DNA from: an uncultured delta proteobacterium
Lineage (GTDB): Bacteria; Desulfobacterota; WTBG01
NCBI GenBank assembly: GCA_963793865.1
Contig: CAWCBP010000008.1
Location: forward strand, 355,182-419,181
Reading direction: 5' to 3'
Length of the DNA stretch: 64,000 bases
Part shown: positions 10,191-32,120 of the stretch, one piece after another
How positions within the stretch are numbered: the first letter of the stretch is position 1
How the letters are laid out: every line of letters begins with the position of its first letter
Notes under the pieces: model-generated
Seen by the model: the letters and a program-made list of their open reading frames with translations, nothing else
The model's database searches: none
What the model was told of the DNA's origin: nothing
Translations under genes and position numbers: made by a program

Positions 10191-10217
10191 AGGCCGGGTG
10201 CCGGAGGCATAGCGTAT

Positions 10218-12245
10218 ATGAAAAATATCAGCAGAAGAAATTTCATCAAGCGGTCCGCATGTGCCGCCGCCGCACTGGCAACGGGCATGGGCGTCGCCCC
10301 GGCATTTGCCGTCAGGAAAGGACGGGCAAACGCAGCGGGGAAACAAGTCATCGTGATCGGTTTTGACGGCATGGATCCCGGGCTGGCCCGGCAATTGATG
10401 AACGCCGGCAGGCTGCCCAACCTGGAGCGCTTGCGAAGGCAGAACGGATACCGCGTGCTCGGGACCAGCATCCCTCCGCAGAGCCCCGTGGCCTGGGCCA
10501 ACTTCATCAACGGCGCCGGGCCCGGTTCCCACGGCATCTTCGACTTTATCCACCGTGATCCTGAGCGGCAGGCCTATCCGTTTTTCGCCGCCGCTGAAAC
10601 GGTACCGGGCGAGGGCTATCTTGAATGGGGCGAGCATAAACTGCAGCTCGACTTCTGGCCCTTCAATCATAAGCCGGCCAGAACCGTGCTGCAGAGACAG
10701 GGGACTCCCTTCTGGGATTATCTTGACCGGGAGGGAATTCCCTCCACCTTTTATGACCTGCCCTCGAACTATCCGCCCAGCCCTTCGCGCTACGGCAACC
10801 ATCGATGCCTCTCCGGCATGGGGACGCCCGACCTGCAGGGAAGCTATGGGACCTACCAGCACTTTGCCGAGGACGGGCCCGCGCAGACCCAATCCGAGGG
10901 GGGCGGAAAGCGGTCGAGAATCCATTTTGAAGGTGATACCTCCCTTCCGCTGGCACTTCTGGGGCCGAGGAACACCCTGCTCAAGGATCCCCGGGATGCC
11001 GTCATCAATTTTACCCTTCACCGAGACCGGGACGCGGGCGCCGCGGTGGTGGAGATCCAGAAGCACACCCTGGTTCTCAAACAGGGGGAGTGGAGTCCCT
11101 GGATACCCCTTGATTTCGGGCTTTCCACTCCGGCGATGCTGCCGGATAAACACGTGAGCGGCATCTGCCGCTTCTACCTGCAGGAAGTTTCCCCCTGCTG
11201 CCGGCTGTATGTGAGCCCCATCAATATCAATCCCGCCAGCCCGGCGATCCGGATTACCGAGCCCGAAGAATTCTCTCAGGAAATGGCGCACCGCCTGGGC
11301 CTTTTCGCCACCACCGGATTCCAGGAGGACCACAAGGCCCTGTCGAATAAAATTTTTACCGATGACGAGTTTGCCCGGCAGGCCGACCATGTGCTGCAGG
11401 AACGCATGAACCTGCTCGATTATGCCTTGCGGAACTATGATGACGGACTGCTGTTTTTCTACTTCTCCAGCACCGACCTCCAGTCCCACATGTTCTGGTG
11501 GGACTGCGACGCGACGCATCCCGTCCGGTCCCGGGAAGCGGCGATACACTACTTCGGGCAGCTGCAGGATCTCTATGCCCGGATGGACGCGGTGGTGGGT
11601 GATCTGCTCAAGCGCTACGGAGACAGGGCCCACATCATGGTCATGAGCGATCACGGCTTTTCCAATTTCGTGCGCCAGTTCAACCTGAACACCTGGCTGC
11701 GCGATAACGGCTATCTCGGCTCCCCCGACAGCACCTCCATCATGGACCGGGGCTTCGAATGGTCAAAAAGCCGCGCCTTCGGCCTGGGCATCAACAGCCT
11801 CTATCTCAATCTCAAGGGGCGGGAGCGTTACGGTACCGTGGAACCCGGCCCTGAGCGGGAGGGACTGCTGGAAGAGCTTGCGCGCAAGCTGGTGGCCGTC
11901 CGTGACCGCGACGGCAGGCAGGTCATCCGGGCGGTCCACCGGGCCGACAAAGTGTACGCGGGTACGGCCACGCGTTACGCCCCCGATTTGATTATCGGCT
12001 ACAGCCGCGATTTCCGCGCTTCATGGAAAACGGTGCTCGGGGACATGACCGATGAGGTGATGCTCGATAATGAGTCGGCCTGGAGCGCCGACCACTGCAT
12101 GGATGCGTCCGAAGTGCCCGGGGTGTTATTCAGCAACCGGCCCATCGCGGCGCCGAACCCCGCGCTTGCGGACCTGGCGCCCTCGATACTTACAGCGTTC
12201 GGTTTAGGGATACCATCGGACATGACCGGCAGAAATATTTTTTAG
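10218..12245 (+). CDS. Alkaline phosphatase superfamily protein, Tat-exported paralog
   Basis: SRRNFIK twin-arginine signal; IGFDG, PPQSPVAWANF, MSDHG, WSADHC. Confidence 0.85.
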   Translation: MKNISRRNFIKRSACAAAALATGMGVAPAFAVRKGRANAAGKQVIVIGFDGMDPGLARQLMNAGRLPNLERLRRQNGYRVLGTSIPPQSPVAWANFINGAGPGSHGIFDFIHRDPERQAYPFFAAAETVPGEGYLEWGEHKLQLDFWPFNHKPARTVLQRQGTPFWDYLDREGIPSTFYDLPSNYPPSPSRYGNHRCLSGMGTPDLQGSYGTYQHFAEDGPAQTQSEGGGKRSRIHFEGDTSLPLALLGPRNTLLKDPRDAVINFTLHRDRDAGAAVVEIQKHTLVLKQGEWSPWIPLDFGLSTPAMLPDKHVSGICRFYLQEVSPCCRLYVSPININPASPAIRITEPEEFSQEMAHRLGLFATTGFQEDHKALSNKIFTDDEFARQADHVLQERMNLLDYALRNYDDGLLFFYFSSTDLQSHMFWWDCDATHPVRSREAAIHYFGQLQDLYARMDAVVGDLLKRYGDRAHIMVMSDHGFSNFVRQFNLNTWLRDNGYLGSPDSTSIMDRGFEWSKSRAFGLGINSLYLNLKGRERYGTVEPGPEREGLLEELARKLVAVRDRDGRQVIRAVHRADKVYAGTATRYAPDLIIGYSRDFRASWKTVLGDMTDEVMLDNESAWSADHCMDASEVPGVLFSNRPIAAPNPALADLAPSILTAFGLGIPSDMTGRNIF

Positions 12246-12339
12246 CAGGCGGTTGAAAAACACCCATCTGCTTTGTGGCTCAAAGGGAGGGGCTTTTGAC
12301 GCCACAACATTTCTACAACCTTTTAGGGCGAGATGTTCA

Positions 12340-12528
12340 ATGGCCAAGATCAAGATTGATTCCAAGCTCTTTGACCGCGCGAAAGAAGCGGCGGAGAAGG
12401 CGGGATACGCCAGCACCGAAGAGTTTATCACCCACCTTATTGAGAAAGAGGTCGCGCGGCTGGAATCGCCGCCTGCCGGGGATGATGCCGTCGCGGACCA
12501 GCTTCGGGGCCTGGGATATATTGAATGA
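12340..12528 (+). CDS. Small protein (62 aa), ribbon-helix-helix/CopG-like N-terminus with C-terminal LRGLGYIE tail
   Basis: Start moved to ATG 12340 (MAKIKIDSKLFDRAKEAAEKAGYASTEEFITHLIEKE); stop overlaps next start (ATGA). Confidence 0.7.
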   Translation: MAKIKIDSKLFDRAKEAAEKAGYASTEEFITHLIEKEVARLESPPAGDDAVADQLRGLGYIE

Positions 12529-13370
12529 CTGAACTTTTGCTGCGGACGCTGACGGGGATAAACACGGTCACCAATGCTCTCGGCGATATGCTGCAGGCGC
12601 CGGTTGCGACAATGCCGGGGTGGCTTTCCATCACCATCCTGTCCGCGGCGGTCGGGGTGCTTGCCCTGATTATTTTCAAATACACCTCCAATCAGAAGGC
12701 GATCGGCCGCGTCAGGGACGACATCAAGGCCAACCTCCTGGCCGTCAAGCTCTTCAGGGACAATTTCTCCGTGGCCTTCCGGTCGCAGGCACGGGTCATG
12801 GCTGCCGCCGTAAAGCTGCTGGTTTATTCCCTGGTGCCGATGCTGGTTATCATCCTGCCGGTGTGCCTGGTGCTTGCCCAGATGGGTTCGTGGTATCAGG
12901 TCCGCCCTGTGCGGCCGGGGGACGGGCAGGTCACGGTACAATTAAAAATGAACCATCGCGCCGGCACCCTCCCGCAGGTTTCGCTTGACCCCCTCCCCGG
13001 TATCCGCCTCCTCACCGGGCCGGTTCGGGTCCCCAGCAGGGATGAGATTTATTTCAGGCTTCAGCCGCTGGAGTACGGGAACCACACCCTCGTTTTTCAT
13101 ATCGGAGACGCCCGGTATGAAAAGCAGCTGGCCGTCGGCGAAGGCTTCATGCGGGTAAGCCCCAGGCGGCCGGGCGCAAACCCGGGGGATGTTTTGCTGT
13201 ATCCCATGGAAAAACCGTTCTCTTCCGGCGATCACGTTGGGTCGATCAGCATTGCCTATCCGGCACGGGAATCGAAAATTTTTGGAACCGACTGGTGGAT
13301 TGTCTATTTTTTTCTGGCCTCCATGGCATTCGCCATGCTCTGTAAACCTTTTCTGAAAGTGAGGATATAA
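12525..13370 (+). CDS. Membrane protein resembling DUF106/EMC3-TMCO1 family with inserted soluble beta-domain
   Basis: TM1, coiled segment (FKYTSNQKAIGRVRDDIKANLL), TM2 (SLVPMLVIILP), C-terminal WWIVYFFLASMAFAMLCKPFLKV. Confidence 0.6.
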   Translation: MTELLLRTLTGINTVTNALGDMLQAPVATMPGWLSITILSAAVGVLALIIFKYTSNQKAIGRVRDDIKANLLAVKLFRDNFSVAFRSQARVMAAAVKLLVYSLVPMLVIILPVCLVLAQMGSWYQVRPVRPGDGQVTVQLKMNHRAGTLPQVSLDPLPGIRLLTGPVRVPSRDEIYFRLQPLEYGNHTLVFHIGDARYEKQLAVGEGFMRVSPRRPGANPGDVLLYPMEKPFSSGDHVGSISIAYPARESKIFGTDWWIVYFFLASMAFAMLCKPFLKVRI

Positions 13371-13373
13371 GCA

Positions 13374-13949
13374 ATGGAGCAGAAGCCGTTTATTACCATT
13401 GTTTCGGGCCTTCCGCGCTCGGGGACATCCATGATGATGCAGGTGATTGAAGCCGGGGGCGTTCCCGCCCTCACCGATAACCTGCGCACCAGGGATGAGG
13501 ACAACCCCCAGGGATATTATGAATTCGAGCCGGTAAAGAAGACCAGGGAGGACCCATCCTGGGTCCCGGGGGCACGCGGAAAGGTGGTCAAGATGGTGTA
13601 CCGCCTGCTGTATGATCTGCCCGGTGACCAGGAGTACCGCGTCATCTTCATGCGCAGGAACATCGATGAGGTCCTGACCTCGCAGAAAAAAATGCTTCAG
13701 CGCTCGGGCAAGCCGGGCGCGGCCATCAGCGATGAAAGATTGAAAGAGCTGTTTCTGGCCGAGCTGGACAAGTTCGATCGCTGGATAGCGGAACAAAAGA
13801 ACTTCTCGATCATCGAGGTTGATTACAGCGACATGGTTGCCTCCCCCGGGACGCAGTGCAAGCGCATTAATGAATTTCTCGGAGGGGTCCTTGATAGTGA
13901 CCGCGCGGCCGCGGCGGTGAATCCGTCCTTGTACCGCAACCGGAGCTGA
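13374..13949 (+). CDS. Sulfotransferase family protein (P-loop, PAPS-binding)
   Basis: IVSGLPRSGTSMMMQ 5'-PSB loop; VIFMRRNIDEVLTSQ 3'-PB-like motif; no signal peptide. Confidence 0.85.
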   Translation: MEQKPFITIVSGLPRSGTSMMMQVIEAGGVPALTDNLRTRDEDNPQGYYEFEPVKKTREDPSWVPGARGKVVKMVYRLLYDLPGDQEYRVIFMRRNIDEVLTSQKKMLQRSGKPGAAISDERLKELFLAELDKFDRWIAEQKNFSIIEVDYSDMVASPGTQCKRINEFLGGVLDSDRAAAAVNPSLYRNRS

Positions 13950-14063: not shown

Positions 14064-14094
14064 AAAGGGCCTGGCATTGAGCCGGGCCCTTTTT
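14064..14094. terminator. Bidirectional terminator between convergent operons
   Basis: AAA-GGGCCTGGC-ATTGA-GCCGGGCCC-TTTTT. Confidence 0.7.
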
Positions 14095-14118: not shown

Positions 14119-16275
14119 TCAGGGTTCCGGCTCAAATACCAGGATATAACGCTGCGGGATGAATTGTGCCCGGTCAACCAGGCGGAAGCCGTAGTGCTTC
14201 AGCTGGCTGATGATGAGCTCCGGGGCGATGCGGGGGCCGTAGTAGGGATTTTCAGCGTCCGCCAGGACGGCATTGTCGGCGATGACCAGCCGGGCGCCTT
14301 TTCGCAGGGAGCGCTTGAGGCTGTTGATGAAACCGTCTTTCACATATTCCAGCGAGCCCATGTAGATGGCGTGATACACGGAGCAGATGTACACCAGGTC
14401 CACGCTTTCGGGAGGCAGCGCGGCGTCATTGTCCCGGGCCAGGACGGTCTGAATGTTGCGCACCCCGTTTTTTATCGACACCTCCCTGACATAGTCAAGC
14501 ATGGCTTGCGTGGTGTCGGTGGCGTAAACCATGCCATCCGGGCCTGCCAGTTCCGCGAACTTGAAGGTGTAATAGCCGGGGCCGCAGCCGATATCCGCGA
14601 TGCGGGTGCCGGGCTTGATGTTGAGAAACTCAATGACCCTGCCGGTGCGCTCCCAGTTTTCGCGATAGGGGCTGCTGAAGGCAATGAACTCGCCCCATTC
14701 GTTAAGCTGGCCCTGGGTCACCGGGGCGGATCCGGGAAGCTCCAGGTCGCGAATGGAGAGCTTCTGAGCGCCCGGGCCGGCGTGCGCCGCGTCTTCGTCG
14801 TCGAGCACGGCGTCGAAATAATATTTATAGCGCAGATAGGTCTTCAATACCCTGAAGTCGTCAACTGCCAGCCGCTCGAAGTAGCTGCGGACAAACCAAT
14901 GGGCAAGCAACTCCTGTCTTAACCGGGGTGAGGCAAGCAGATACTCGCAGAACCATTGCCAGGCAAGATATTCGTCGCCGAACCGCTCCCGGGGAATCAA
15001 CGCCCTGTAGGCTTCCAGGGCCGCATTGATGGTTGGCGGGTCCTTCTTTTCCAGGGCTGTGTACATCAGCCGCGCTGCCCGCCGGCCGGCCAGGGTAAAG
15101 CCCGGGGAGGAGGCGATCGGCGAGGAACGGAGCAAAGAAGATTTTGAGATGAGGGGGACGCAGTCATCGCCGAGTGGTCGGTCAAGCGGCGCGGGCTGCG
15201 GCTCCTCCGGCATCATCTTAAACACCAGGATGTAGCGCTGGGGAATGAACTGGTAGCTTTTGACCAGCTGCAGGCCATAATACCAGAGCTGGTTGATGAT
15301 CAGTTCCCTGGCGAGATGGGGACCATGATAGGGAAGAGTCCTGTCTTCAACCAACCCGTTGTCCACGATCACCAGCATACCGTCCGGCTTGAGGTTGCTC
15401 TTGATGCTGTTGATGAATGTGCCGCGCTCTTCATCGGTGTCCAGGGCATATATATTGTGATACAGCGAGCAGAGGTAGGCCATGTCCGCTTTCCGGGGAA
15501 GCAGCATGCCTGTTGACGCCGGCACCACTGCTTCCACGTTCTTCACGCTGAGCTTCTTCACCAGCTTCGATACATAGTCAATATGCTGCTGATTGGTGTC
15601 TACCGCATACACAAGGCCGCGCTCGCCGACCATTTCCGCGAACTTGAAGGTATAGTAGCCGGGGCCGCAGCCGATGTCGGCCACCACGTCGCCCTTTTTC
15701 AAACCGAGGACTTCAAGGATGCTTCCGGTCTTTTCCCATCGCTCGCGCCGGGGATTGTTGAAGAGGATGAAATCCTCCAGAAAGCGGAACCTTGGCTCCG
15801 ACTTGGGCGTCGCCCGGTCCTTCCATTCCAGCAGGTGGTACTTCTTCTTGAGGTAGTCCCTGAGCGGCTCGAAGTCATCCCGGGAGAGATAATCGTACCA
15901 CGCAGCCGTGATGGGGTCGGCGAGCATCTTCTCCCGCTCCTTTCCGGATGCCGCCATGAACTCGCCGATCCATTCCAGCGCGGTGTATTCCCCGCCGAAA
16001 TTCTCCGAGGGTATGATCTGCCGGTAGATCTCTATCGCCTCACGGGCGGGCCGTGGATCCTTCCGGGTCAGACAGTCATACATCAGCGAGGCCGCCCTGG
16101 TGCCGCCTTCGGTGATGTCGAAGGAATCGAGGCTGCCCAGATGAATGAGGGAGGCCCTGGAGGTAACGCGGATGAAATGCGGGGGCGCCGACGGGACATC
16201 AGGCTGCCTGAGCAAAGGAGGCGGGGGCTGCCGCAACGGCGCCGAGCAGGAGGTAACTAAATAAAGAGGTTTCAT
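14119..16275 (-). CDS. Tandem (internally duplicated) class I SAM-dependent methyltransferase, 718 aa
   Basis: ADIGCGPGYYTFKFAE occurs twice; both halves end QFIPQRYILVF; ATGA overlap with upstream gene. Confidence 0.85.
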   Translation of the reverse strand: MKPLYLVTSCSAPLRQPPPPLLRQPDVPSAPPHFIRVTSRASLIHLGSLDSFDITEGGTRAASLMYDCLTRKDPRPAREAIEIYRQIIPSENFGGEYTALEWIGEFMAASGKEREKMLADPITAAWYDYLSRDDFEPLRDYLKKKYHLLEWKDRATPKSEPRFRFLEDFILFNNPRRERWEKTGSILEVLGLKKGDVVADIGCGPGYYTFKFAEMVGERGLVYAVDTNQQHIDYVSKLVKKLSVKNVEAVVPASTGMLLPRKADMAYLCSLYHNIYALDTDEERGTFINSIKSNLKPDGMLVIVDNGLVEDRTLPYHGPHLARELIINQLWYYGLQLVKSYQFIPQRYILVFKMMPEEPQPAPLDRPLGDDCVPLISKSSLLRSSPIASSPGFTLAGRRAARLMYTALEKKDPPTINAALEAYRALIPRERFGDEYLAWQWFCEYLLASPRLRQELLAHWFVRSYFERLAVDDFRVLKTYLRYKYYFDAVLDDEDAAHAGPGAQKLSIRDLELPGSAPVTQGQLNEWGEFIAFSSPYRENWERTGRVIEFLNIKPGTRIADIGCGPGYYTFKFAELAGPDGMVYATDTTQAMLDYVREVSIKNGVRNIQTVLARDNDAALPPESVDLVYICSVYHAIYMGSLEYVKDGFINSLKRSLRKGARLVIADNAVLADAENPYYGPRIAPELIISQLKHYGFRLVDRAQFIPQRYILVFEPEP

Positions 16276-17744
16276 GGTTTTGAACAGCTTTCCCGGGCAA
16301 TATGCGGGGGTCCTGAGTGAGTTCCGTGCATATAAGGATTAAGCGGGCCGTCCGCATAGCGTGCCGGGGCAAACGGCATATATTCCTTCTGGTGAAACTG
16401 CTGCACCACCTCGTCGGCGAAAAACGCCCCCAGCGGGGTAAGCTCAACGCGGGACCCGGTTTCGCTGATAAGCCCGAACTCTTTAAGGCCTGCAAAAATG
16501 CCGGGGAAGGCTTCGGCCAGGGGAACCCCGGTCACCGCTTCAAAATGCTTTTTTCTGATAAAATAGTTCTTCAGCGGCAGTATGATTGCCCACCGCGTCT
16601 GCTCATCTTTGCTGCGCACCAGGCCGCGATTGAGCGGCAGGCGCCCCGCCTCAACGGCGCCATAGTACTCGTCAAAGTACTGCACGTTCAGGCTGAAGCG
16701 GTCGCGCATGCTGCTGAACGCGGTCAGCCCGAACCCTATCTGGTCGAGCAGGGCGCAGCACTGGTTGAAGGCGTACAGCGAAATGTCCGACCGTTTCCTG
16801 GTAAACACCCGCCGCAGGTTCTCGTGAAAGCCGCTGCGGGCGAGCAGGTCGATGGCCACCTGCTTCATCAGGAACATGTCTTCAACCGCTATCATTTCAT
16901 CGGGACGGATCTCCCGCACCTTTTGAATCACCCCCTGCTGGTCCCCGTAGGGTATGACCTTGAGCCGGTAAAACTGGATTTCGTCGACGCCGGCGCCCAG
17001 CGCCTGCTCCAGCACCGCCACCCAGTTTTCCATGGTCTGACCGGGATACCCGAAGATGAATTCAATGTTCACCTTGTAGCCGTATTCCTGCGAGTTCCTG
17101 ATGGACTCAAGCGCAACCGCGGCATCATGTGAACGGTTCATCCGTTTGAGTATGGCGTCATTGAAGGACTGCACCCCGATGGTCAGGCGGTTGACGCCGA
17201 ACGACCTCATGATGCGCAGCCGCTCCCTGCCTTCGGGACCCACCAGGGTTGAAGGATCAACGTCATAATTGAACTGCCGGCATCCGCCCATGTCCAGCCG
17301 GGAGGTGAAGAAGGTCAGGAAGCGCTCCAGCTGTGCCGGGGTCAGGTCGGTCGGCGTCCCGCCGCCGACCAGGATGGAGCGCGCTTTAATGGAGCTGATT
17401 CCCAGCCGGCGCAGGTAGAGATCCATCTCCCTTTCCAGCGCAGTGAGGTAGCGGTCTTTTTCCGCATCAGCCGCGCCGTAGAGGGAGGGATAGTGGCAGA
17501 ACACGCAGCGGCGCATGCAAAAGGGAATGTGCACGTAGAGATCAAACATGCCGTCCGGCGGCAGGGTGTACGTGTCAAACAGCGCTTCTTCGGTAACCGG
17601 CGGATACATGGTAATCGGCGGATAGTGGACCGAGGGGAAGAAGTCCCCGTCCATGGGAACGAGCCCCGCCTTCCTGAGCCGCCGGTAATCGTCCAGTCTC
17701 GGGCGGGCCGCATCCAGCATTTCCCTGATTTCGCCGCTACGCAT
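16272..17744 (-). CDS. HemN-like (class C type) radical SAM enzyme
   Basis: YVHIPFCMRRCVFCHY CX3CX2C, VGGGTPT, RLTIGVQSF, FIFGYPGQT; start moved to ATG 17744, overlapping upstream stop. Confidence 0.85.
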   Translation of the reverse strand: MRSGEIREMLDAARPRLDDYRRLRKAGLVPMDGDFFPSVHYPPITMYPPVTEEALFDTYTLPPDGMFDLYVHIPFCMRRCVFCHYPSLYGAADAEKDRYLTALEREMDLYLRRLGISSIKARSILVGGGTPTDLTPAQLERFLTFFTSRLDMGGCRQFNYDVDPSTLVGPEGRERLRIMRSFGVNRLTIGVQSFNDAILKRMNRSHDAAVALESIRNSQEYGYKVNIEFIFGYPGQTMENWVAVLEQALGAGVDEIQFYRLKVIPYGDQQGVIQKVREIRPDEMIAVEDMFLMKQVAIDLLARSGFHENLRRVFTRKRSDISLYAFNQCCALLDQIGFGLTAFSSMRDRFSLNVQYFDEYYGAVEAGRLPLNRGLVRSKDEQTRWAIILPLKNYFIRKKHFEAVTGVPLAEAFPGIFAGLKEFGLISETGSRVELTPLGAFFADEVVQQFHQKEYMPFAPARYADGPLNPYMHGTHSGPPHIARESCSKP

Positions 17745-18810
17745 GAAAGGCCTCCATGGAGAGTCGCATGCCCGCGCGGCGCACAATGTCTTCAAGGTGC
17801 GCTTCATTCGGCACAACGCGCTTGAGGGAGTAGATGGGGAAAAGGCGCTTCAGCTCCGGGGGCGTTCCGTCGTGAATGGTGACGGTATTGGCGCCGGCCG
17901 TCAATCCGCGGTACTGCCCCTCCGGCGCTGCTTTTTCCAGGGAACTGGTGGCCGGCATGAGCACGGAGGGATTCATGATCCTCATCAGGGCCATGACGGC
18001 AAGGGTACGATCCAGGCTCCCCATCGGTTCATCCCGGCAGCAGGAGTCTTCCGAGGGGATAAATGCCGTGCAGCTCACCATGGACAGGGGATATTGTTGC
18101 ACCAGCAGCAAATCAGCCGCGATGTCCTCCAGCGTCTGGCCGGGCAGGCCGACGATGTTTCCGGTGCCGACCGCGAAGCCGGCGGACAAAAGGTGCTCAA
18201 TGCACGCCAGCCGCCGCGTGAGCGAGTCACCGGGTTTCAATTGTTCATAGAGCGCGGGATTGGCTGTTTCAAACTTGAGAATATAGCGCTCCGCCCCCGC
18301 TTTCCTGAGCCGGCGATACTGGTCGGGACGCAGATTGCCGAGGCACAGGATGACCAGCAGGTCGCTGAAGCGGGCCTTCACCCTCTCGACGCAGCGGCAC
18401 ACATAGTCGACAAAGGATTGAGCGGGGTTTTCACCCGACTGCAGGAGTATGACCCGCCTGCCCTTCAGGTAAACGGAGGCAACAATTTGTTCAAATGCCT
18501 CCGGGTCAATCCGGTAGCGTTCCCGCTTCGAGCTTCTGGCCATGTTGCAATAGAGGCAGTCGCGCACGCAGGTATTGGATATTTCGATCACGCTCCGCAC
18601 TTCCACTTTTTTTTCAGGAAAGTGGAGGTCCCGCGTCTTCCGTGCCAGGGCAAAGAGAAGGGATTGCGCTTCACCGTCGAAGGAGAGTGCCTCTTTCAGC
18701 AGGGAGGGATGGAAATCACCGCTCGCAAGCGCATCAATCACTTCATGAAATGCCATCTGCCGCGTGCTTTCGACACACATGGTATCCTGTCCCTTGGTGA
18801 CTCTGCTCAC
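17737..18810 (-). CDS. HydE/PylB-like (BioB-family) radical SAM enzyme
   Basis: VRSVIEISNTCVRDCLYCNM, LLQSGE, YILKFETAN, VGTGNIVGLPGQT, MPATSSL, GANTV. Confidence 0.85.
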   Translation of the reverse strand: MSRVTKGQDTMCVESTRQMAFHEVIDALASGDFHPSLLKEALSFDGEAQSLLFALARKTRDLHFPEKKVEVRSVIEISNTCVRDCLYCNMARSSKRERYRIDPEAFEQIVASVYLKGRRVILLQSGENPAQSFVDYVCRCVERVKARFSDLLVILCLGNLRPDQYRRLRKAGAERYILKFETANPALYEQLKPGDSLTRRLACIEHLLSAGFAVGTGNIVGLPGQTLEDIAADLLLVQQYPLSMVSCTAFIPSEDSCCRDEPMGSLDRTLAVMALMRIMNPSVLMPATSSLEKAAPEGQYRGLTAGANTVTIHDGTPPELKRLFPIYSLKRVVPNEAHLEDIVRRAGMRLSMEAFHA

Positions 18811-19694
18811 ACCCTGCAGAGCAGTATCACCCCGAACACCGTAAGCACCGCCCCGGCTATCTCCATCAGGGTGACCCGCTCCTTTAAAAACACCACCGCC
18901 AGCGGAATGACGAACAGGGGCTCAGCCGCGCTCAGCGCGTTGGCGATGGCAATCTCGACGTGCTTTATGGCCACCAGCGACAGCCAGAAGCCGCCGAAGG
19001 TGACCACGCACACCGAGATCACGAATACGCCGAGCATGTTCATGTCGCTGAAGGGGTTGATCCACTCCCTCACCCGGCCGGTGAGCATGCCGAAGATGAG
19101 CATGCCCAGGGTTCCCGCGACCATGCGAATGAAGGTGGCGGTCATGGTTGAAACCGAGCCCAGCGCCTGCTTGGCAATAATCAGCGAGATCGACATGGCC
19201 AGCATGGAGAAAAAGCCCAGCAGGATGCCCCGCATCCTGGTCGGCCGGTGGGTTTCATCCCGCGAAATCTGGGTGAGCAGCACCATGGCAATGCCGGCGA
19301 GGACCACCCCTATGCCCGTCCACTCCCCCGGCCGGGGCACCTCTCCCAGAAAAAGGATGGCCAGCAGCGCGGTGAGAATCTGTCCGGCCATGAAAAACAC
19401 GATCAACCCGACCGGGCCGAGGTCCTGCAGGGCGGCAAAAAAAAGCGTGTCTCCAACGGCTATCCCCAGTATGCCGCTCACCAGCAGGAGGCCGAGCGCC
19501 CCGCCGGGAATGGCGCCGTATCCGGTGATGCAGAGCACCGCCCCCAGCAGCAGCGAGCTCACCGCCCCCTTGCTCAGGGTCATGCCGAAGGGGGTGACCG
19601 TCTCACCGATGCGCTTGAAGAGAATTGAGCCAACTGCCCATGATGCCGCGGAACCGAGCGCAGCGCCCATGCCCAGCAGCTTAAGGTCTGTCAC
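18807..19694 (-). CDS. DMT/EamA family transporter
   Basis: About 10 TM helices in two repeats; GDTLFFAAL, AAEPLFVIPLAVVFLKERVT; GTG start with AGGAGG RBS. Confidence 0.85.
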   Translation of the reverse strand: MTDLKLLGMGAALGSAASWAVGSILFKRIGETVTPFGMTLSKGAVSSLLLGAVLCITGYGAIPGGALGLLLVSGILGIAVGDTLFFAALQDLGPVGLIVFFMAGQILTALLAILFLGEVPRPGEWTGIGVVLAGIAMVLLTQISRDETHRPTRMRGILLGFFSMLAMSISLIIAKQALGSVSTMTATFIRMVAGTLGMLIFGMLTGRVREWINPFSDMNMLGVFVISVCVVTFGGFWLSLVAIKHVEIAIANALSAAEPLFVIPLAVVFLKERVTLMEIAGAVLTVFGVILLCRV

Positions 19695-19741
19695 GTCTCC
19701 TCCTGTGGATCTTCAACGGACGGCAACCGGGTCATGCCGGA

Positions 19742-21031
19742 TCACTCGTACCGCAGCGCGTCGATGGGATTGAGGCGCGCCGCCTTCCGCGCCGGGAAAA
19801 AGCCGAAGATGATGCCGATGGCCGCGGAGACCATCACCGAGACAAAAATCATTTGTGCCCTGATCAGGGCGCTGAAGGCGGTAAACCCGTTGATGCCCCA
19901 TGCGGCAGCCAGCGCCAGCAGCACCCCGCAAATGCCGCCGATCAGGCTCAATACCACCGCCTCGGTGAGAAACTGCACCATGATGTCGCTGCGGCATGCC
20001 CCCACCGACATGCGTATGCCGATCTCGTGAGTTCTTTCGGTGACTGACACCAGCATGATGTTCATGATGCCGATGCCCCCCACGATCAGCGCGATGCCCG
20101 CGATGGCGGCCAGAAAGCTGGTCATCAGCTTTGAGGATCTGGTGACCACCTCAATGATTTCAGTCTGGTTCTGAATGGTGAAATCATCCTCCCCGCTCTC
20201 CAGGCGATGGGCATCACGGAGGGCGGCTCGCATCTCCTCCTCGGCGTCTTCAAGCACATCCTCCGACACCGCGCTTGCGGTAATCAGATCGATGTAACGC
20301 CCGCCCTTGAGACGGTACAGCACCGTGGTGGCCGGGGCGATGACCAGGTCGTCCTGGTCCATCCCCCTTCCGCCCTGCCCCTTTTCCTCAAGCACGCCGA
20401 TGACGGTGAAGGGTATGTTTCTGATGCGGACCTTCTGCCCCACGGGATTTTCGCCGGCAAACAGCTCGTCGGCAACCGTCCTGCCGAGCAGCGCAACCTT
20501 TCTTCGCCCGTTCACATCCTTTTCGGTGAAAAGCGTGCCCTGCTCCGGCTTCCAGTTTTTTATCTTAAAATAATCGGTGCCCACCCCGCATATTTCGGTT
20601 GCCCAGTTGGCACTTCCGGCGATGACCTGCCCGCCCGCCATGACCAGCGGCGATATGGCCCGGAGCTGTGTCACCGATTGTCTGATCTTCTCCACGTCAT
20701 CCAGGGTAAAACGGTTGAGGCTTCCCATGCCCCGCTGCACACCTCCCAGGCGGCTTGATCCGGGAGAGACAATGATCACGTTCGTGCCCAGGAGGTTGAT
20801 TTCCTTCCTGATCAGGTCCTGGGTTCCCTCCCCGACCGCCGACATGACGATCACCCCGCTTACACCGATGATGATGCCCAGCGAGGTCAGCATGCTGCGC
20901 AGCTTGTTCTTGAGAATGCTCCTGAGGGCGATCCCGAGCAGATTCTTAAATATTAGCGGCAACCCCATATCCTGCACCATGTGTTCTGCCGGTCCCGCAT
21001 CCGGCGGCGCCCGGTGGGCCGAAACGCTCAC
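19742..21031 (-). CDS. MacB/FtsX-type ABC transporter permease (no ATPase domain)
   Basis: LRSMLTSLGIIIGV, GTNVIIVSPG, VGGIGIMNIMLVSVTERTHEIGIRMSVGA, PARKAARLNPIDALRYE. Confidence 0.9.
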   Translation of the reverse strand: MSVSAHRAPPDAGPAEHMVQDMGLPLIFKNLLGIALRSILKNKLRSMLTSLGIIIGVSGVIVMSAVGEGTQDLIRKEINLLGTNVIIVSPGSSRLGGVQRGMGSLNRFTLDDVEKIRQSVTQLRAISPLVMAGGQVIAGSANWATEICGVGTDYFKIKNWKPEQGTLFTEKDVNGRRKVALLGRTVADELFAGENPVGQKVRIRNIPFTVIGVLEEKGQGGRGMDQDDLVIAPATTVLYRLKGGRYIDLITASAVSEDVLEDAEEEMRAALRDAHRLESGEDDFTIQNQTEIIEVVTRSSKLMTSFLAAIAGIALIVGGIGIMNIMLVSVTERTHEIGIRMSVGACRSDIMVQFLTEAVVLSLIGGICGVLLALAAAWGINGFTAFSALIRAQMIFVSVMVSAAIGIIFGFFPARKAARLNPIDALRYE

Positions 21032-22329
21032 AGGCCGGGGGGCGGCGGTCCGGGCGGCGGACCCATGGACCCCGGCTGGTCTCCCATCAGTATCCGATTC
21101 ACATTGCCAATGCTCTTGCCGCCCTTGTCTGTGCTGCTCACTCCGCAGAGCACCTGCATGCCTTCCTGAAGCATGCCCGGATCGGAGAGCTCGGTAAACA
21201 TCCCGTCGGCAATGCCGGTCTTCACCCGCTCCATTGTCAGACGGCCGTCCCGGTCAATGAACCACAGTTGACCGTCGCTGTCCCGGGAGGCATCCTGCCC
21301 GGAAGGGGAGGCCGTGCGGGCCGCGCCGTCTTCCTGCGGCCTCTTGAGGCCGCCTCCGGCTGACTCCCCGGAGGGCTGAAACTGAAGCGCGGCGGTGGGA
21401 ACGAGCAGGACACCGCTTCTCTCCGCGATCACAAAGTCAACCTCGGCGGTCATGCCCGGAAGCAGCAGGTGATCCTCATTGACGGCGTCAACCACCACCG
21501 TATAGTTAACCACGTTGGATATCAGCCTGGGCTGCAGGCGGATTTTTTTCACCACCCCTCCAAAGACCCTGCCGTCATATGCCTGGACCTCGAACTGCAC
21601 CTTCTGCCCCTCTTTGATTTCACCTATGTCGCTCTCATCCACGTTTACCAGGATTTCCAGGTGCGACAGGTCGGCGGCAATCTCAAACAGCGTGGGCGTG
21701 GCAAAATTGGCCGCGAGCGTCTGCCCTTCCTCCACGTTTTTCGCGATCACGATGCCGTCAATGGGTGAGCGGATCACCGCGTACTCGAGATTGCGCCGGG
21801 CCTTCTGCAGGGTGGCCCTGGCTGATTGCAGCTCCGCCTGCCGTGTTTTTAACTTGACCCGGGTGGTTATGAACTGGAAGTCGGAAATGACCCCTTTTTT
21901 AAAAATCGGCAGATTGCGATCATACTCCGCCTGTGCTTCCTCCACGGCCGCTTCTTTATTGCTCACGTTCGCTTCCGCGTTATCCACCTCCGCCTTGAAG
22001 AGCGAGGTGTCCAGCTCTGCCAGGAGCTGATCTTTTTTGACCCCGTCGTTGTAATCCACGTGAATTCTGGCAATGGTGCCTGATACCTGCGTGCCCACCT
22101 CCACCTTGGTTACCGGATCAAGCGGGCCGCTGCAGGATATGGTTTTCCTGATGTCGCCCCTGCTGATGGCGGCCATTTTGTACGGGGCATTCCCGCGCTG
22201 CGCAAAAAACCCTCCGATAAAACGCACCAATCCCGCGAGCACGATTGCGCCTACCAGTAGCCACAGCAACCTCCCTCTCGCGCCCTTTTTAGCCGTCATG
22301 GGCGGTTCGATGCTTTCCTGCGACGCCAT
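21028..22329 (-). CDS. MacA-like periplasmic adaptor (membrane fusion protein)
   Basis: N-terminal TM; VEVGTQVSGTI, IRSPIDGIV, VDESDIG, LLPGMTA. Confidence 0.9.
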   Translation of the reverse strand: MASQESIEPPMTAKKGARGRLLWLLVGAIVLAGLVRFIGGFFAQRGNAPYKMAAISRGDIRKTISCSGPLDPVTKVEVGTQVSGTIARIHVDYNDGVKKDQLLAELDTSLFKAEVDNAEANVSNKEAAVEEAQAEYDRNLPIFKKGVISDFQFITTRVKLKTRQAELQSARATLQKARRNLEYAVIRSPIDGIVIAKNVEEGQTLAANFATPTLFEIAADLSHLEILVNVDESDIGEIKEGQKVQFEVQAYDGRVFGGVVKKIRLQPRLISNVVNYTVVVDAVNEDHLLLPGMTAEVDFVIAERSGVLLVPTAALQFQPSGESAGGGLKRPQEDGAARTASPSGQDASRDSDGQLWFIDRDGRLTMERVKTGIADGMFTELSDPGMLQEGMQVLCGVSSTDKGGKSIGNVNRILMGDQPGSMGPPPGPPPPGL

Positions 22330-22436
22330 GTTTTCACCGTCTCATGTTCTTTCGGAATTGAATCGTCACCGCGCGAGGTTACAATACGGGTACTTTATAT
22401 AATAAGCGCATAAAAACACAATATTAAAATTGACAA

Positions 22437-23147
22437 TTGTCCCAAAGTTCTATACATGTCATTAGGAAAAAGCCACCGTGTGAGCCCGCACCCATGTCAG
22501 CAATGAAACAGATCATTGCAGCCCGCCACTACAGCTCTTCTGACTCTTTGATCCCTTTTGTGCGTGATTCCTCTCATCCCCAGCCGGCTGTTTGCCGCCC
22601 CGCCCCCCGATCATTGCCCGACCGGATTTACATCATCGGGTTTTCCGGCGTGGGGAAAACAACCGAGGGAGCAATAATCGCCCACATGCTCGGTCGGAAA
22701 TTTATTGACCTGGATCAGGCGATTACCGGAAGCACCGGGAAGACCATACCGCAGATTTTCGAGGAAGGGGGACAAGACCGCTTTCGCGCCGTCGAGACAC
22801 GTGTGCTCCACGAACTGGCGGCAGCCGAACACAACGCGGTTATTGCCTGCGGGGGAGGGACGGTCTGTGAACGGATAAACCGCCGCATCCTCAAAGAGAG
22901 CGGCCTCAGCATCCTGCTCGTTGCCGATGTGCAGACGATCTATAAGCGCACGCGTTCGTCCGACCGGCCGCTGCTGAGCGGCGCGGACCCGCTGCGAAAG
23001 ATTGAGGAGCTCCTGCGCGATCGCCGTCCTCTCTACCTCGAGTGCGCTGACTGCATCTTCTCAACGGGCCGGACATTGCCCGATGAGGTTGGAAGAGACA
23101 TATGTAATTACTATCTGGCCGGGCAGCCCCAGGCCGGTATGCGTTAG
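22437..23147 (+). CDS. aroK: Shikimate kinase (true start probably downstream, e.g. TTG 22614)
   Basis: IIGFSGVGKTT Walker A, FIDLD, FRAVE, ACGGGTV, RPLL. Confidence 0.85.
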   Translation: MSQSSIHVIRKKPPCEPAPMSAMKQIIAARHYSSSDSLIPFVRDSSHPQPAVCRPAPRSLPDRIYIIGFSGVGKTTEGAIIAHMLGRKFIDLDQAITGSTGKTIPQIFEEGGQDRFRAVETRVLHELAAAEHNAVIACGGGTVCERINRRILKESGLSILLVADVQTIYKRTRSSDRPLLSGADPLRKIEELLRDRRPLYLECADCIFSTGRTLPDEVGRDICNYYLAGQPQAGMR

Positions 23148-23200
23148 CACATTAAAAAAGTGTAATCGGTAAAAGCAGCTCAAACATGGAGGATTTCAAA

Positions 23201-23623
23201 ATGGGTCCGGGAGAGAATGCGGTTTCTTATTTTGAGCAGGGAAATAACTGAGCGGTGTCAGTGTTTCGCTCGTTGAGCGAACTGGTTGATGCCGGTGAGA
23301 GGATGGACTATCATCTGGCGGCGGGATTCGGAGGCGGCCTGGGCAGAAACGGTTACGTGTGCGGTGCCGTCGCGGCTGCAACCATGATTATCAGCCTGGA
23401 GGGAAGGGGAAAGGAGAAGAAGGAGATCTACAGAGATGTGGATGGATTTCTTAATGATTTCAAATCCCGCTTCGGAGAGGTTAATTGCCGCGGACTGCTG
23501 GGAGTGGACCTTAAAACCAAAGAGGGAATGGCATTTCTCGCAACAGAGGGACACAAAAAGTGCGCTGACTATGTCCGTTACGCCGCGGACCGGGTGGGGG
23601 ACATGATTAGTGTGAAGGAGTGA
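23201..23623 (+). CDS. C-GCAxxG-C-C family redox protein, predicted selenoprotein (Sec at TGA 23249-23251)
   Basis: GGAGG RBS + ATG 23201, MGPGENAVSYFEQGNN-UGA-AVSV in frame with the track ORF 23255; GFGGGLG, VCGAV, VNCRGLL, KCADYV; TGA occupies the first conserved Cys position. Confidence 0.8.
23254..23293 (+). promoter_or_regulatory. Bacterial SECIS-like hairpin
   Basis: Lower stem GGTGTCA/TGATGCC, upper stem TTCGCTC/GAGCGAA, apical loop GTT whose G lies 21 nt after the UGA. Confidence 0.7.
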
Positions 23624-23640
23624 GGGGAGATAGGACGAAT

Positions 23641-23777
23641 GATGCAGGATACAGGATACATGATGCACGATACAGGATGTGAGGTGAGGCAAATCCGAAG
23701 CGCGAAGAGAGGTAAACCCTAATTTCAAAATCCCAAATCCCAAAGAAATCCAAAATCCAAATGTCAAATGCTCAAAA
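23641..23777. repeat. Degenerate 7-bp tandem arrays (GATRCAN x6; AAATCCN-type x7-8)
   Basis: gatgcag gatacag gatacat gatgcac gatacag gatgtga; aatttca aaatccc aaatccc..tccaaat gtcaaat gctcaaa. Confidence 0.7.
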
Positions 23778-23843
23778 CGGAAACCACGAAAGACGCGGAA
23801 ACAACATACTTCACCAGAGCGTGAAGGAAAACGACAGGCAACA

Positions 23844-23905
23844 GTAGGGGCAACCCCCTGTGGTTGCCCTTTGATATCCGGGCAGGCACAGGGGCCTGCC
23901 CCTAC
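23844..23905. repeat. GTAG-type REP doublet
   Basis: GTAGGGGCAACCCCCTGTGGTTGCCCT..GGGCAGGCACAGGGGCCTGCCCCTAC: two hairpins bounded by GTAG/CTAC. Confidence 0.7.
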
Positions 23906-23943
23906 TCAACCGACAAACAAGGGAACGGGCAAACCAGCAAACC

Positions 23944-24762
23944 ATGAACCGCCCTAAGATCACCGCCTCCACACAACTCTGCGCCATCATCGGCAACCCC
24001 ATAGGACATTCCCTCTCTCCGCTGGTGCACAATGCCGCTTTCCGGCACCTCGGGCTGGATTATGTTTTCGTGGCATTCCGGGTGGAGCGGCTGCAGGAGG
24101 CGGTCCGGGGCATCGCGGCGCTCGGTTTGAAAGGGATCAGCGTCACCATACCTCACAAGGTGGAGGTGATGGCCTGCCTGGATGAGATAGAACCGGTGGC
24201 CCGGCGGATAGGGGCGGTGAACACCATTGTCAACAGGGATGGAAAGCTCATCGGCTATAATACCGATTGGAACGGCGCCATGAGGGCACTGCAGAATAAA
24301 ATTGAGCTTCAGGGAAAAACTGCCGTGGTTCTGGGGGCGGGAGGTGCGGCGCGGGCGATCGCCTTTGGCCTTAAAGAAAAGGGCGCTGACCCGGTTATTC
24401 TCAACCGGACGGTTTCCAAAGCCGAAGCGCTGGCTTCAGGGCTCACATGCCGTTTCGGCGGCCTTGAGCTCATCGACAAGCTGTCTTTTGACCTGGTAAT
24501 TAACGCCACCTCAGTGGGGATGTCCCCCGACGCGGACCGCACGCCCCTGAACAGGACGGTGCTCAAGAATGTGCTTGTCTTTGACACGGTGTACAATCCC
24601 TTAAAGACCCGCCTGATCAGGGAGGCTGAAGAAAACGGCTGCGCCACGGTAACGGGGCTGGAGATGTTTGTGAACCAGGCGGCCCTGCAGTTCGAGCTGT
24701 GGACCGGGCAGACGGCCCCGCTGGATATCATGAAACAGGTTACCGCCCGGGAGCTGGCATGA
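23944..24762 (+). CDS. aroE: Shikimate dehydrogenase
   Basis: GNPIGHSLSP, SVTIPHK, GAVNTI, NTDW, LGAGGAAR, NATSVG, GLEMFVNQA. Confidence 0.95.
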   Translation: MNRPKITASTQLCAIIGNPIGHSLSPLVHNAAFRHLGLDYVFVAFRVERLQEAVRGIAALGLKGISVTIPHKVEVMACLDEIEPVARRIGAVNTIVNRDGKLIGYNTDWNGAMRALQNKIELQGKTAVVLGAGGAARAIAFGLKEKGADPVILNRTVSKAEALASGLTCRFGGLELIDKLSFDLVINATSVGMSPDADRTPLNRTVLKNVLVFDTVYNPLKTRLIREAEENGCATVTGLEMFVNQAALQFELWTGQTAPLDIMKQVTARELA

Positions 24763-28768: not shown

Positions 28769-28793
28769 GAAGTGATGGGGGATGTGCGATGGA

Positions 28794-28972
28794 GGAGGCA
28801 GGAGGCAAGATGCGCGACGCAGGTTGAAATCCAAAATCCAAAGCTCAAAATCCCAAGTAAATCCAAAATTCAAATGACCAAAACAACCCGCGGGCAGGTC
28901 CGTTTTTGAACGTTTTGTCATTTGAACTTTTTCACTTTTCATTTGGGTTTTGTTATTTGAACTTTGTCATTT
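28794..28972. repeat. 7-bp tandem arrays forming an imperfect large inverted repeat between bioF and bioH
   Basis: Left AAATCCA/AAATGAC-type units; right TTTGAAC/GTCATTT units complementary to them. Confidence 0.65.
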
Positions 28973-29046
28973 ATTACTTGGATATGCTCCGTGCTTCGGA
29001 TTTATAAACATTCCTATTATTGCTATAAAGATTAAATTAAACAAAT

Positions 29047-29859: not shown

Positions 29860-30685
29860 TGGACAAGAATAAAATAAAGCGCTCATTCAATGACCACGCT
29901 GCATCCTATGATGGATCGGCCCATCTGCAGCGGCGGGTGGCTGAAGAGCTGGCTGCGCGAATTAAGACTCTCGGACTGTGCCCCTCAGCCGTACTGGATA
30001 TCGGCACGGGGACGGGGTATATCCCGCTCAGCCTGGGTCAGCTGTTCCCCGCGGCATCCATACAGGCCTGTGACCTGGCCCGGGGCATGCTCCTGGTGGC
30101 GCGGAACAAAAGCGACGGCTGTCGCGGCAGCCCATCTCCGGTTTTGTCAATGCCGATGCCGAGTTCCTTCCCTATCGGAGTGGCGCCTTTGACCTGGTGG
30201 TTTCAAATCTTGCCTACCAGTGGCTTGACGATTGGAAGGCTGCGTTTCGGGAGGCTTCCAGAGTGCTGCGTGCAGGGGGCGTCTTCTGCTTTACCACCCT
30301 CGGAAGCAGCACCCTTTTTGAGCTCAGGGATTCCTACCGGCACTCTTTTCATGCGCGGGGAAGCGGGGCTTTGCCCGCCCTTCACGAATTTATCCGGCAT
30401 GATGACCTGCAGCGTATCCTTGAAAGCGAAGCATTCGGGGAGGTGTCGGTGCAGCGCAGGCTGGAAAGGGAGTACCATGCCGATGTCAGGCAGCTTTTAA
30501 TCGGCTTAAAGGCCATCGGCGCGCAGAACGGTTCTAACAACCGGCTCTCCCGCCCGGGCAGGCCGAAGGTGTTCCGGGGGATGATCGAGGTATATGAGAG
30601 CAGGTACCGGGATCCAAAGGGCATTCCGGCCACCTATGAACTTCTTTTCGGTTTCGGGCGGAAAGCGGTGCAGCAGCAGATATGA
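29856..30685 (+). CDS. bioC: Malonyl-ACP O-methyltransferase, split by one frameshift at about 30105-30143
   Basis: 5' frame SFNDHAASYD..LQRRVA..LDIGTGTG..CDLARGML; 3' frame FVNADAEFLP..FDLVVSNLAYQW..LKAIGA..ATYE; joined length about 276 aa. Confidence 0.85.
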
Positions 30686-32079: not shown

Positions 32080-32120
32080 ACATGCAATCGTAACCCGATA
32101 GCAGCTTAAGAGGTGCATCC

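Follow-up and report, generated by a model that had tools for sequence, protein, structure and literature searches.

A six-gene cassette on the minus strand of a 64,000-nucleotide stretch of DNA from an uncultured delta proteobacterium (contig CAWCBP010000008.1; the whole stretch is called the window below) encodes two radical S-adenosylmethionine (SAM) enzymes, one HydE-like and one HemN-like, a tandem methyltransferase and three transport proteins. The six open reading frames (ORFs) were confirmed at 14119-22329 in the order membrane fusion protein (MFP), MacB-type permease, EamA permease, HydE-like enzyme, HemN-like enzyme and tandem methyltransferase, all where an earlier account made without database searches (the sequence-only reading) had placed them and in the families it had named. 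Four of these genes, those of the two radical SAM enzymes, the methyltransferase and EamA, are the conserved core of the cassette, which is ancient and horizontally mobile, and the window holds one copy in which a periplasmic efflux module of the MacA/MacB type is added to this core. All three cassette enzymes are SAM-dependent, and export machinery is almost always attached to them. By analogy with characterised systems, we assign a probability of about 0.45, a little short of even, to the reading that the cassette makes a small methylated metabolite in the cytoplasm and then secretes it; in its best version the product would be a methylated amino-acid- or SAM-derived, possibly sulfur-containing metabolite that leaves the cell by two-step export. 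Confidence in any single chemical step is much lower than confidence in this general scheme. By sequence, the proteins are assigned to the HemN-like and HydE/BioB-clan radical SAM superfamilies, to the drug/metabolite transporter (DMT) family and to the MFP and MacB-fold families, and the cassette is of a known kind, that of radical-SAM small-molecule tailoring and export modules, but belongs to no characterised pathway. No NCBIfam equivalog model was reached by any core protein and no description of the gene combination was found in the full-text literature (some queries being poorly targeted), in agreement with the earlier statement that it is not a described pathway.

The core was delimited by comparing gene neighborhoods. 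One genome per GTDB species was scanned, which gave 241 loci encoding relatives of the HemN-like protein. The 80 best loci were retrieved together with their flanking DNA (HemN-like orthologs of 55-87% identity); their ORFs were called and searched with the window proteins, and partners were counted up to 10 kb from the HemN-like gene. The HydE-like enzyme was found in 68 of these 80 loci, the methyltransferase family in 62 and EamA in 63, the three together being present in 47, and a transporter of any kind in 74, as expected from the proposal of export. Truncated contigs are frequent; when the count was restricted to the 48 loci that extend at least 5 kb in both directions, the three partners were found in 42, 38 and 39, respectively, the methyltransferase count leaving out divergent members found later. 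The genes are arranged differently from phylum to phylum, a pattern that points to selection for keeping them together and not to synteny by descent. Moreover, the HemN-like (N-terminal) and HydE-like (C-terminal) enzymes are fused into a single chain of about 830 residues in a Bacillota metagenome-assembled genome (L024, 9953-12454) and in locus L061 (792-3287). P0108 is also listed as a natural HemN-like/HydE-like fusion. Because every gene of the window's cassette has homologs at E <=1e-100, the six-gene arrangement lies far beyond chance. The clustering of the orthologs elsewhere, their permuted order and the fusions bear out the suggestion of the sequence-only reading that the genes form a functional unit. 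By the terms of that reading a scattering of the orthologs in other genomes would have refuted it, and this outcome is decisively contradicted.

The cassette is widespread and unevenly distributed. Relatives of the HemN-like protein number more than 1500 when clustered at 90% identity; the 120 best are 58-93% identical and come from lineages including Aminicenantes, Verrucomicrobiota, Prosthecochloris, Desulfobacteraceae, Desmonostoc, Ignavibacteriales and Methanoculleus. The checked loci, the best 80 of 241, span more than 15 phyla and both prokaryotic domains, with carriers among Thermodesulfobacteriota, Bacteroidota, Chlorobi, Verrucomicrobiota, Planctomycetota, Cyanobacteria and methanogens, and in Prosthecochloris, Methanoculleus and Desmonostoc the neighborhood consists of a radical SAM protein of about 340 residues, a double methyltransferase of 707-713 residues (or a single one of 370) and a transporter. 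Three layouts can be distinguished. Type A, present in cyanobacteria, many Verrucomicrobia, Methylococcales and Sulfopaludibacter, contains a secreted LTXXQ protein followed by the HydE-like enzyme, a single methyltransferase, EamA and the HemN-like enzyme. Type B, present in the window, Aminicenantes, Bacteroidales, Ignavibacteria, Acidobacteria, Chlorobi and Competibacteraceae, contains EamA, the HydE-like and HemN-like enzymes and the double methyltransferase, often with an in-operon amino acid-polyamine-organocation (APC) permease and with an MFP, an ATPase and a MacB-type permease. Type C, found in methanogens and some Planctomycetes, contains the HemN-like and HydE-like enzymes and the double methyltransferase, and then an ABC-2 exporter. 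A full cassette also resides on a 317-kb conjugative MOBQ/MPF_T plasmid of Bradyrhizobium sp. ISRA443, a peanut isolate (L090, NZ_CP094524, 157758-183173), where genes for an ABC ATPase, a 790-residue double FtsX permease, an HlyD protein and an Aap-like amino-acid ABC importer are interposed; a search of IMG/VR for carriage by phages gave one match. Only transporters and the LTXXQ protein recur as families in at least nine loci, and no recurrent regulator, ars or mer gene or further enzyme family was found in the flanks of the 80 loci. In single loci, a paralogous second module adjoins the cassette (L086, 11374-17308), with a 471-residue radical SAM protein, an EamA protein, a nitroreductase, a PALP enzyme, an HMGL-like enzyme and a DsbA-like thioredoxin, and two HemN-like and EamA pairs occur together (L085).

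The HydE-like enzyme carries a CxxxCxxC motif at C81/C85/C88 and scores 222.3 bits against the HydE model TIGR03956, about 30 bits below its cut-off of 254.6, and its cassette homologs from cyanobacteria, Methanoculleus, Verrucomicrobia, Bacteroidales, Prosthecochloris and the Bradyrhizobium plasmid score 166-244 bits, all below that cut-off; the curated PylB and BioB models are not reached either (104.7 bits against 348 and 92.4 against 225, respectively). The closest solved relative is HydE of T. maritima (structures 3CIW and 8QMK; E=4e-56 over 309 aligned residues), whose R159, T268 and T269, which we take to be the carboxylate-binding pocket of HydE, align to K179, T288 and S289, a correspondence to be read as a lead rather than as a test. 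The likeness to HydE lies in the CxxxCxxC motif and in a pocket that appears mostly kept, whereas the cassette enzyme differs in the lysine at the R159 position, invariant in its family, in the absence of the C-terminal auxiliary-cluster cysteines, in its occurrence in taxa without [FeFe]-hydrogenase and in being always paired with a HemN-like enzyme instead of HydG or HydF. No extra or auxiliary-cluster cysteine is conserved in the HydE-like family, C156, at one BioB-like position, being partly conserved. The narrow shortfall against the HydE model and the strong similarity to the T. maritima enzyme could also be explained if the two radical SAM genes were housekeeping genes lying side by side by chance, one encoding HydE for [FeFe]-hydrogenase maturation and the other HemN or HemW for heme. 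Such an explanation is scarcely credible and already contradicted by synteny, as both enzymes stay below the curated cut-offs in every lineage tested, their genes are fused together and co-conserved with those of the methyltransferase and EamA, and no protein named HydE is among the 120 closest homologs of the HydE-like enzyme. Likewise, HydG, HydF and [FeFe]-hydrogenase are absent from the recurrent neighbor families of the 80 loci, a result that covers neighborhoods and not whole genomes, which were not searched, and to our knowledge cyanobacteria and methanogens, which both carry the cassette, lack [FeFe]-hydrogenases.

The HemN-like enzyme shows the hallmarks of the HemN-like (class C) superfamily, to which its sequence assigns it: a CxxxCxxC cluster motif (C76/C80/C83) within YxHxPFC, a GGGTP motif and a C-terminal domain of the HemN type. 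The residues Y70, H72, P74, F75, C76, C80, C83 and G127-P131 are invariant, and a profile of the family aligns to residues 26-440 of HemN (E=4.7e-46), the C-terminal domain of HemN being kept. Nevertheless, none of the cut-offs of the curated models is reached (in bits, score and cut-off: STM4012, 162 and 380; HemN, 146 and 325; HutW, 144 and 400; HemW, 130 and 205), which places the enzyme outside the characterised HemN, HemW, ChuW and STM4012 families. Neither radical SAM enzyme thus reaches the HydE, PylB, BioB, HemN, HemW, ChuW or STM4012 cut-off, and the prospect that they might fall into HemW/HemN or true HydE clades, which the sequence-only reading had named as fatal to its proposal, did not materialise. 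A distinctive mark of the HemN-like family is an NQCC motif, whose first cysteine, C329, is shared by all 75 sequences and whose second, C330, by 74 of the 75. In the profile alignment the two cysteines fall at Y313/T314 of HemN, 2-3 residues past F310/Q311, presumably ligands of the second SAM, and the enzyme probably uses two SAM molecules. Other cysteines, C155 and one at position 30, are partly conserved, and the N-terminal GDFFPSVHYPPI segment is conserved. Compared with HemN (1OLT) and the class C enzymes (NocN/NosN, ChuW/HutW, C10P and STM4012), the cassette enzyme shares the radical SAM barrel with its C-terminal domain, YxHxPFC and GGGTP, and differs in the cysteine pair of NQCC and in the GDFFPSVHYPPI segment. 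HemN-like enzymes in general cleave one SAM, and the resulting 5'-deoxyadenosyl radical generates on a second SAM a methylene radical that adds to the substrate or abstracts from it (PMC10114718).

That the entire HemN fold is kept, including its C-terminal domain, would also suit a tetrapyrrole substrate, which the HemN-like enzyme would modify or open as ChuW does, CbiT/precorrin-like methyltransferases would methylate, and the MacB-type and EamA transporters would export. MacAB and HrtAB-type pumps export porphyrin and heme, and the methyltransferase scores 70.6 bits against the CbiT model TIGR02469 (cut-off, 78.3). We consider this very unlikely, because the CbiT match is limited to the generic Rossmann core, the HemN, HemW and ChuW/HutW models are far from their cut-offs, no tetrapyrrole gene recurs near the cassette in the 80 loci and tetrapyrrole chemistry as known offers no role for a HydE-like partner. 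The sequence-only reading had offered an amino-acid- or tetrapyrrole-derived product; the amino-acid half has some circumstantial support (an APC permease in eight loci and the Aap-like importer), and the tetrapyrrole half has none beyond the HemN fold.

Two known systems illustrate how such enzymes may cooperate. In nosiheptide biosynthesis, a radical SAM enzyme of the BioB/ThiH/HydE clan (NosL) reshapes an amino acid and a class C enzyme (NosN) then adds a one-carbon unit; NosL is, however, ThiH-like rather than HydE-like (the cassette enzyme scores 74 bits against the ThiH model) and is embedded in a thiopeptide cluster. In CC-1065 biosynthesis, C10P and C10Q form a two-component cyclopropanase consisting of a HemN-like radical SAM enzyme and a methyltransferase (PMC6050322). 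There too a HemN-like enzyme works with an adjacent protein of the SAM-methyltransferase fold on a small molecule, a likeness in the logic of the components; the C10P/C10Q pair differs in sitting within a large natural-product cluster and in having no HydE-like partner, EamA or N-terminal methyltransferase domain.

Each half of the tandem methyltransferase consists of a helical domain of about 150 residues followed by a class I SAM methyltransferase fold. The duplication is old, because the N- and C-terminal halves are separately orthologous across species, and in lineages with a single methyltransferase the unit is of the N-type in 30 of 31. Conserved motifs are FNNPxRExWE, DxGxGxGYYTFxF, CSLYHxIY, DN...PYHGP and PQRYxLxF. 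With an AlphaFold model of the protein (predicted local distance difference test, 87.9; predicted template modeling score, 0.85), Foldseek retrieved generic small-molecule methyltransferases, headed by tandem phosphoethanolamine N-methyltransferases (5WP5 and 4KRG) and followed by 3DH0 and DnrK-type O-methyltransferases. The tandem phosphoethanolamine enzymes, the top matches to the whole model, resemble the cassette protein in having two methyltransferase folds per chain, with successive methylations, and differ from it in sequence (identity of about 10-13%), in a low whole-chain template modeling score and in lacking the N-terminal helical domains, which appear unique to the cassette family. 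No informative Foldseek match was obtained for the N-terminal domain. Searched alone against 1.84 billion representatives, this domain retrieved 129 clusters at 50% identity, apparently members or fragments of the methyltransferase family as judged by length and match position, their domain content not having been examined, and no other protein context that would serve as a Rosetta-stone clue. The N-terminal domain thus appears to be private to the family, and presumably binds the substrate. A 979-residue homolog (P0223) is fused to an alpha/beta-hydrolase of the esterase/lipase type, which could hint at methyl-ester chemistry.

The strongest single-family match of the methyltransferase domains, obtained with PADLOC, is to mad2 (PDLC04134), the predicted DNA methyltransferase of the MADS defence system (128 bits), and PCMT-like matches also appeared in the domain search. 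An anti-phage role was rejected, since no system was matched with several components; the MFP, EamA and both radical SAM proteins gave no PADLOC match and the permease gave weak matches of 25-33 bits to two CARF/LolE transmembrane-domain models. The mad2 and PCMT-like matches, together with the action of the class C enzymes TbtI and NosN on ribosomally synthesized and post-translationally modified peptides, would speak for a macromolecule (ribosomal peptide, protein, lipid or tRNA) as the substrate instead of a free small molecule. This we hold to be very improbable indeed: the presence of a dedicated DMT permease speaks for a small solute, no peptide recognition element, protease or cyclodehydratase is present, and neither a conserved small ORF nor a precursor gene was found (ORFs of less than 90 residues were not clustered systematically), the junctions in the window overlapping or spanning 47 nt. 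A STM4011-4015-like system was also rejected, as the neighboring alkaline-phosphatase-superfamily, sulfotransferase and membrane genes find no match in those families.

A further comparison concerns arsenic. The arsinothricin genes form an arsQML cluster that includes the permease ArsQ. In that pathway the radical SAM enzyme ArsL uses a CCxxC motif to bind As(III), and arsenic is methylated by the methyltransferase ArsM (bioRxiv 10.64898/2026.04.29.721666). As in the cassette, a minimal module of radical SAM enzyme, methyltransferase and permease, with cysteine pairs holding the substrate, needs only SAM and an inorganic substrate, and nothing else is encoded. On this model the cassette would convert inorganic or thiol-bound As, Sb, Se, Te, Hg or sulfide into an exported organo-element compound with SAM as the sole carbon source: the Cys-Cys pair of the HemN-like enzyme would hold the element by the SAM-derived radical, forging a carbon-element bond, an adduct of the element with cysteine would be attacked by the HydE-like enzyme, in the way that HydE acts on Fe-cysteine, and the methyltransferases would methylate the element. 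The scheme, unlikely in our view, draws on the near-perfect conservation of C329 and C330 beside the second-SAM position, on ArsM-type selenoprotein methyltransferases being the best NCBIfam matches of the methyltransferase, far below their cut-offs, on a sporadic spread suggestive of horizontal transfer, with about 60% identity across domains of life as is typical of resistance genes, and on the sulfidic or anoxic habitats of many carriers. Yet the arsenite methyltransferase model is not reached (69 bits against 263), the ArsM equivalog models are not approached (18.6 bits for the plasmid homolog against the methyl_ArsM cut-off of 500), and no ars, mer, tellurite or selenium genes or ArsR/MerR regulators recur in the flanks of the 80 loci. 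The cassette also differs from the arsinothricin module in having two radical SAM enzymes, no CCxxC motif and no ars genes nearby; the third cysteine of the HemN-like enzyme (C155 or C30) is only partly conserved and the HydE-like enzyme has no conserved extra cysteines. Identity with ArsS (arsenosugar) or ArsL was rejected, the resemblance being one of architecture. If true, the organo-element scheme would make the cassette, widespread in bacteria of anoxic habitats, cyanobacteria and methanogens, a hidden contributor to metalloid and chalcogen cycling.

Among the transporters, the best NCBIfam match of EamA is to a carboxylate/amino acid/amine family. The MFP reaches the TIGR01730 cut-off (185 bits against 94.9), and its orthologs adjoin the cassette in 14 of the 80 loci; the match of the permease to the MacB model is confined to the permease half of that model. 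Pumps of the MacB type recur in about 18 loci, an add-on in about a fifth of the lineages. In nine lineages, Crocosphaera among them, the cassette is adjoined by an MFP, an ATPase and a MacB-type permease; the order MFP, ATPase, permease is kept in Aminicenantes, Bacteroidales, Acidobacteria and Crocosphaera, the genes for these three proteins come after the HemN-like gene in Crocosphaera and Cyanothece, and Methanoculleus has an ABC-2 exporter in place of the MacB-type pump. In the window, the MFP and permease genes abut and tblastn found no homolog of the cassette-linked ABC ATPase in the 64 kb. The ATPase gene has been cleanly lost also in the closest relatives (L006, L007, L088 and L089), and no outer-membrane factor is encoded nearby. 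The window pump may be inactive, or may borrow an ATPase encoded elsewhere. Therefore, of the MacAB-type export put forward by the sequence-only reading, the MFP and permease are present and the pump is incomplete. With MacAB-TolC, DevBCA and PvdRT the module shares an MFP and a MacB-fold permease with a periplasmic core domain, and in other lineages the full MFP-ATPase-permease set; it differs from them in the missing ATPase gene and outer-membrane factor of the window and its closest relatives.

The accessory genes allow another view of the same proteins, namely that an exogenous toxic amino-acid analogue or thiol is taken up, inactivated or transformed by the radical SAM enzymes and methyltransferases, and removed as a product by the exporters. 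APC permease genes (inside the operon in eight loci) and genes for an Aap-like importer lie within some clusters, no dedicated precursor-supply enzyme is encoded, and the first gene in 25 loci, in every type A (single-methyltransferase) cassette examined, encodes the secreted LTXXQ protein, which resembles the periplasmic stress chaperones Spy, CpxP and ZraP and is poor in Cys and His (for example, L072, 6752-7495; L005, 3618-4457; L045, 9009-9773). Detoxification of this kind is nevertheless distinctly unlikely in our estimate, given that two oxygen-sensitive radical enzymes would be a costly route, that no inducible regulator is linked to the cassette and that importers occur in a minority of loci only.

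The synthesis and secretion of a methylated metabolite, which we favor, might proceed in four steps. The HydE-like enzyme would first direct a 5'-deoxyadenosyl radical at a small amino-acid-like substrate that bears a carboxylate; as most of the HydE pocket appears to be retained, this substrate may be cysteine-derived or a thioether, HydE itself attacking the sulfur of a metal-bound cysteine or thiazolidine (PMC10114718). The HemN-like enzyme would then bind two SAM molecules, form a SAM-derived methylene radical and install a one-carbon unit, the Cys-Cys pair beside the second SAM either donating hydrogen or serving as a resolving nucleophile or a ligand of the substrate. In a third step, the two methyltransferase units would add one or two ordinary methyl groups. 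Finally, EamA would move the product across the inner membrane to the periplasm, from which the MacB-type pump, where present, would expel it to the outside, acting after EamA because such pumps take their substrates from the periplasm. Several observations weigh against this proposal. The cassette contains no other biosynthetic enzymes, regulator or riboswitch, so that a detoxification or transformation module fits equally; amino-acid transporters occur in only about 10% of the loci; the LTXXQ gene that comes first in so many loci is not explained by the model; the MacB-type permease of the window, without its ATPase, may be inactive here; and every chemical step is drawn by analogy. A search for riboswitches and other Rfam elements, which might give a clue to the ligand, returned nothing for the window and for seven diverse loci.

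The arrangement of the genes is operon-like (Table 1). The sequence-only reading had counted four overlaps of 4-8 nt among the five junctions, and three of these are certain: 4 nt between EamA and the HydE-like gene, 8 nt between the HydE-like and HemN-like genes, where the HemN-like start ATG 17744, preceded at 6 nt by GGAGG, overlaps the HydE-like stop codon, and 4 nt between the HemN-like and methyltransferase genes. The fourth, a 4-nt overlap between the MFP and permease genes, is possible and holds only with a GTG start of the permease; the protein is called as 412 residues in close relatives, which corresponds to ATG 20980 and a 47-nt gap to the MFP gene, and this ATG is probably the true start. 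A gap of 47 nt also separates the permease and EamA genes. The promoter candidate lies upstream of the MFP gene, within the divergent intergenic region shared with aroK. At the other end, a hairpin 27 nt past the methyltransferase stop separates the unit from a convergent operon, with an A-run and UUUGCUU at its two sides, and fits a shared, bidirectional terminator; it was absent from the list of a simple terminator scan, and remains a candidate for the closing terminator proposed before. The GC content of the cassette equals that of the surrounding chromosome, and its neighbors are housekeeping genes, including aroK/aroE/aroA, polA, ftsK and mfd.

Table 1. Coordinates of the cassette genes and of the candidate signals at its ends
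Feature	Position in window	Strand	Basis
Candidate sigma-70-like promoter	22399..22427	-	TTAATA-17-TATTAT, 9/12 matches; consensus match only
MFP, periplasmic adaptor of MacA/DevB-type tripartite efflux pump	21028..22329	-	HlyD_D23; TIGR01730 RND_mfp
MacB-type (FtsX-fold) permease, periplasmic core domain	19742..21031	-	MacB_PCD 166.6 bits, FtsX 60.7 bits
DMT/EamA-family inner-membrane permease, core member	18807..19694	-	EamA (PF00892) 130 bits, two repeats
HydE-like radical SAM enzyme, 357 aa, core member	17737..18810	-	TIGR03956 222.3 bits
HemN-like (class-C-type) radical SAM enzyme, most conserved cassette member	16272..17744	-	Family/motif matches, profile alignment to HemN
Tandem methyltransferase, 718 aa, two units	14119..16275	-	Domain searches, predicted structure
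GC-rich hairpin, candidate terminator closing the unit	14064..14092		dG -20.4 kcal/mol, z -4.07

Other features of the window deserve mention. The convergent four-gene operon (8061-13949, plus strand) encodes two large proteins of the type I phosphodiesterase/alkaline-phosphatase superfamily, one with a twin-arginine translocation signal, a 281-residue protein without a Pfam match and a sulfotransferase; the operon is kept beside the cassette in close relatives, and Phosphodiest homologs lie near the cassette in an elusimicrobial locus (L069) and in Verrucomicrobiaceae (L083). Divergent from the cassette promoter are aroK, a gene for a C_GCAxxG_C_C redox protein, aroE and aroA (22437-26027, plus strand). 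A shikimate-kinase-like gene also lies inside the cassette of L061 (3368-3928), between the fused radical SAM gene and the methyltransferase gene, a position that may be a coincidence or hint at a link to aromatic metabolism. A biotin-type operon (27602-32837, plus strand) contains genes for a bioF-like aminotransferase, a bioH-like hydrolase, a bioA-type aminotransferase and a bioD-type AAA_26 protein, with an unscanned ORF at 29847-30500. The window has no bioB, and the HydE-like gene is the only one of the BioB clan near this operon; that it might be the missing bioB was rejected on account of its low BioB score, the lack of auxiliary-cluster ligands and the presence of the cassette elsewhere without bio genes. 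Three patches of low GC content (2001-4000, 40001-42000 and 62001-64000; 0.47-0.48 against about 0.57-0.61 elsewhere) may be insertions, the second containing an AAA_14/DUF4143 ATPase gene (40275-41495), and a B12-binding radical SAM protein with DUF4070 (50263-52062, minus strand) is separate from and unrelated to the cassette.

The cassette offers a sharply delimited target of four to six genes, with a HemN-like marker in at least 241 species-level genomes. As all of its catalytic steps use SAM and the product is exported, its chemistry should be tractable by heterologous expression with labelled methionine. Its elucidation would give a HydE paralog a role beyond hydrogenase maturation, and would establish a new HemN-like branch marked by an active-site Cys-Cys pair, as well as a family of methyltransferases whose substrate domain is their own. 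In anoxic and cyanobacterial habitats the product could be a common metabolite that has been overlooked, acting as a signal, metallophore or antimetabolite or representing a volatilised element.

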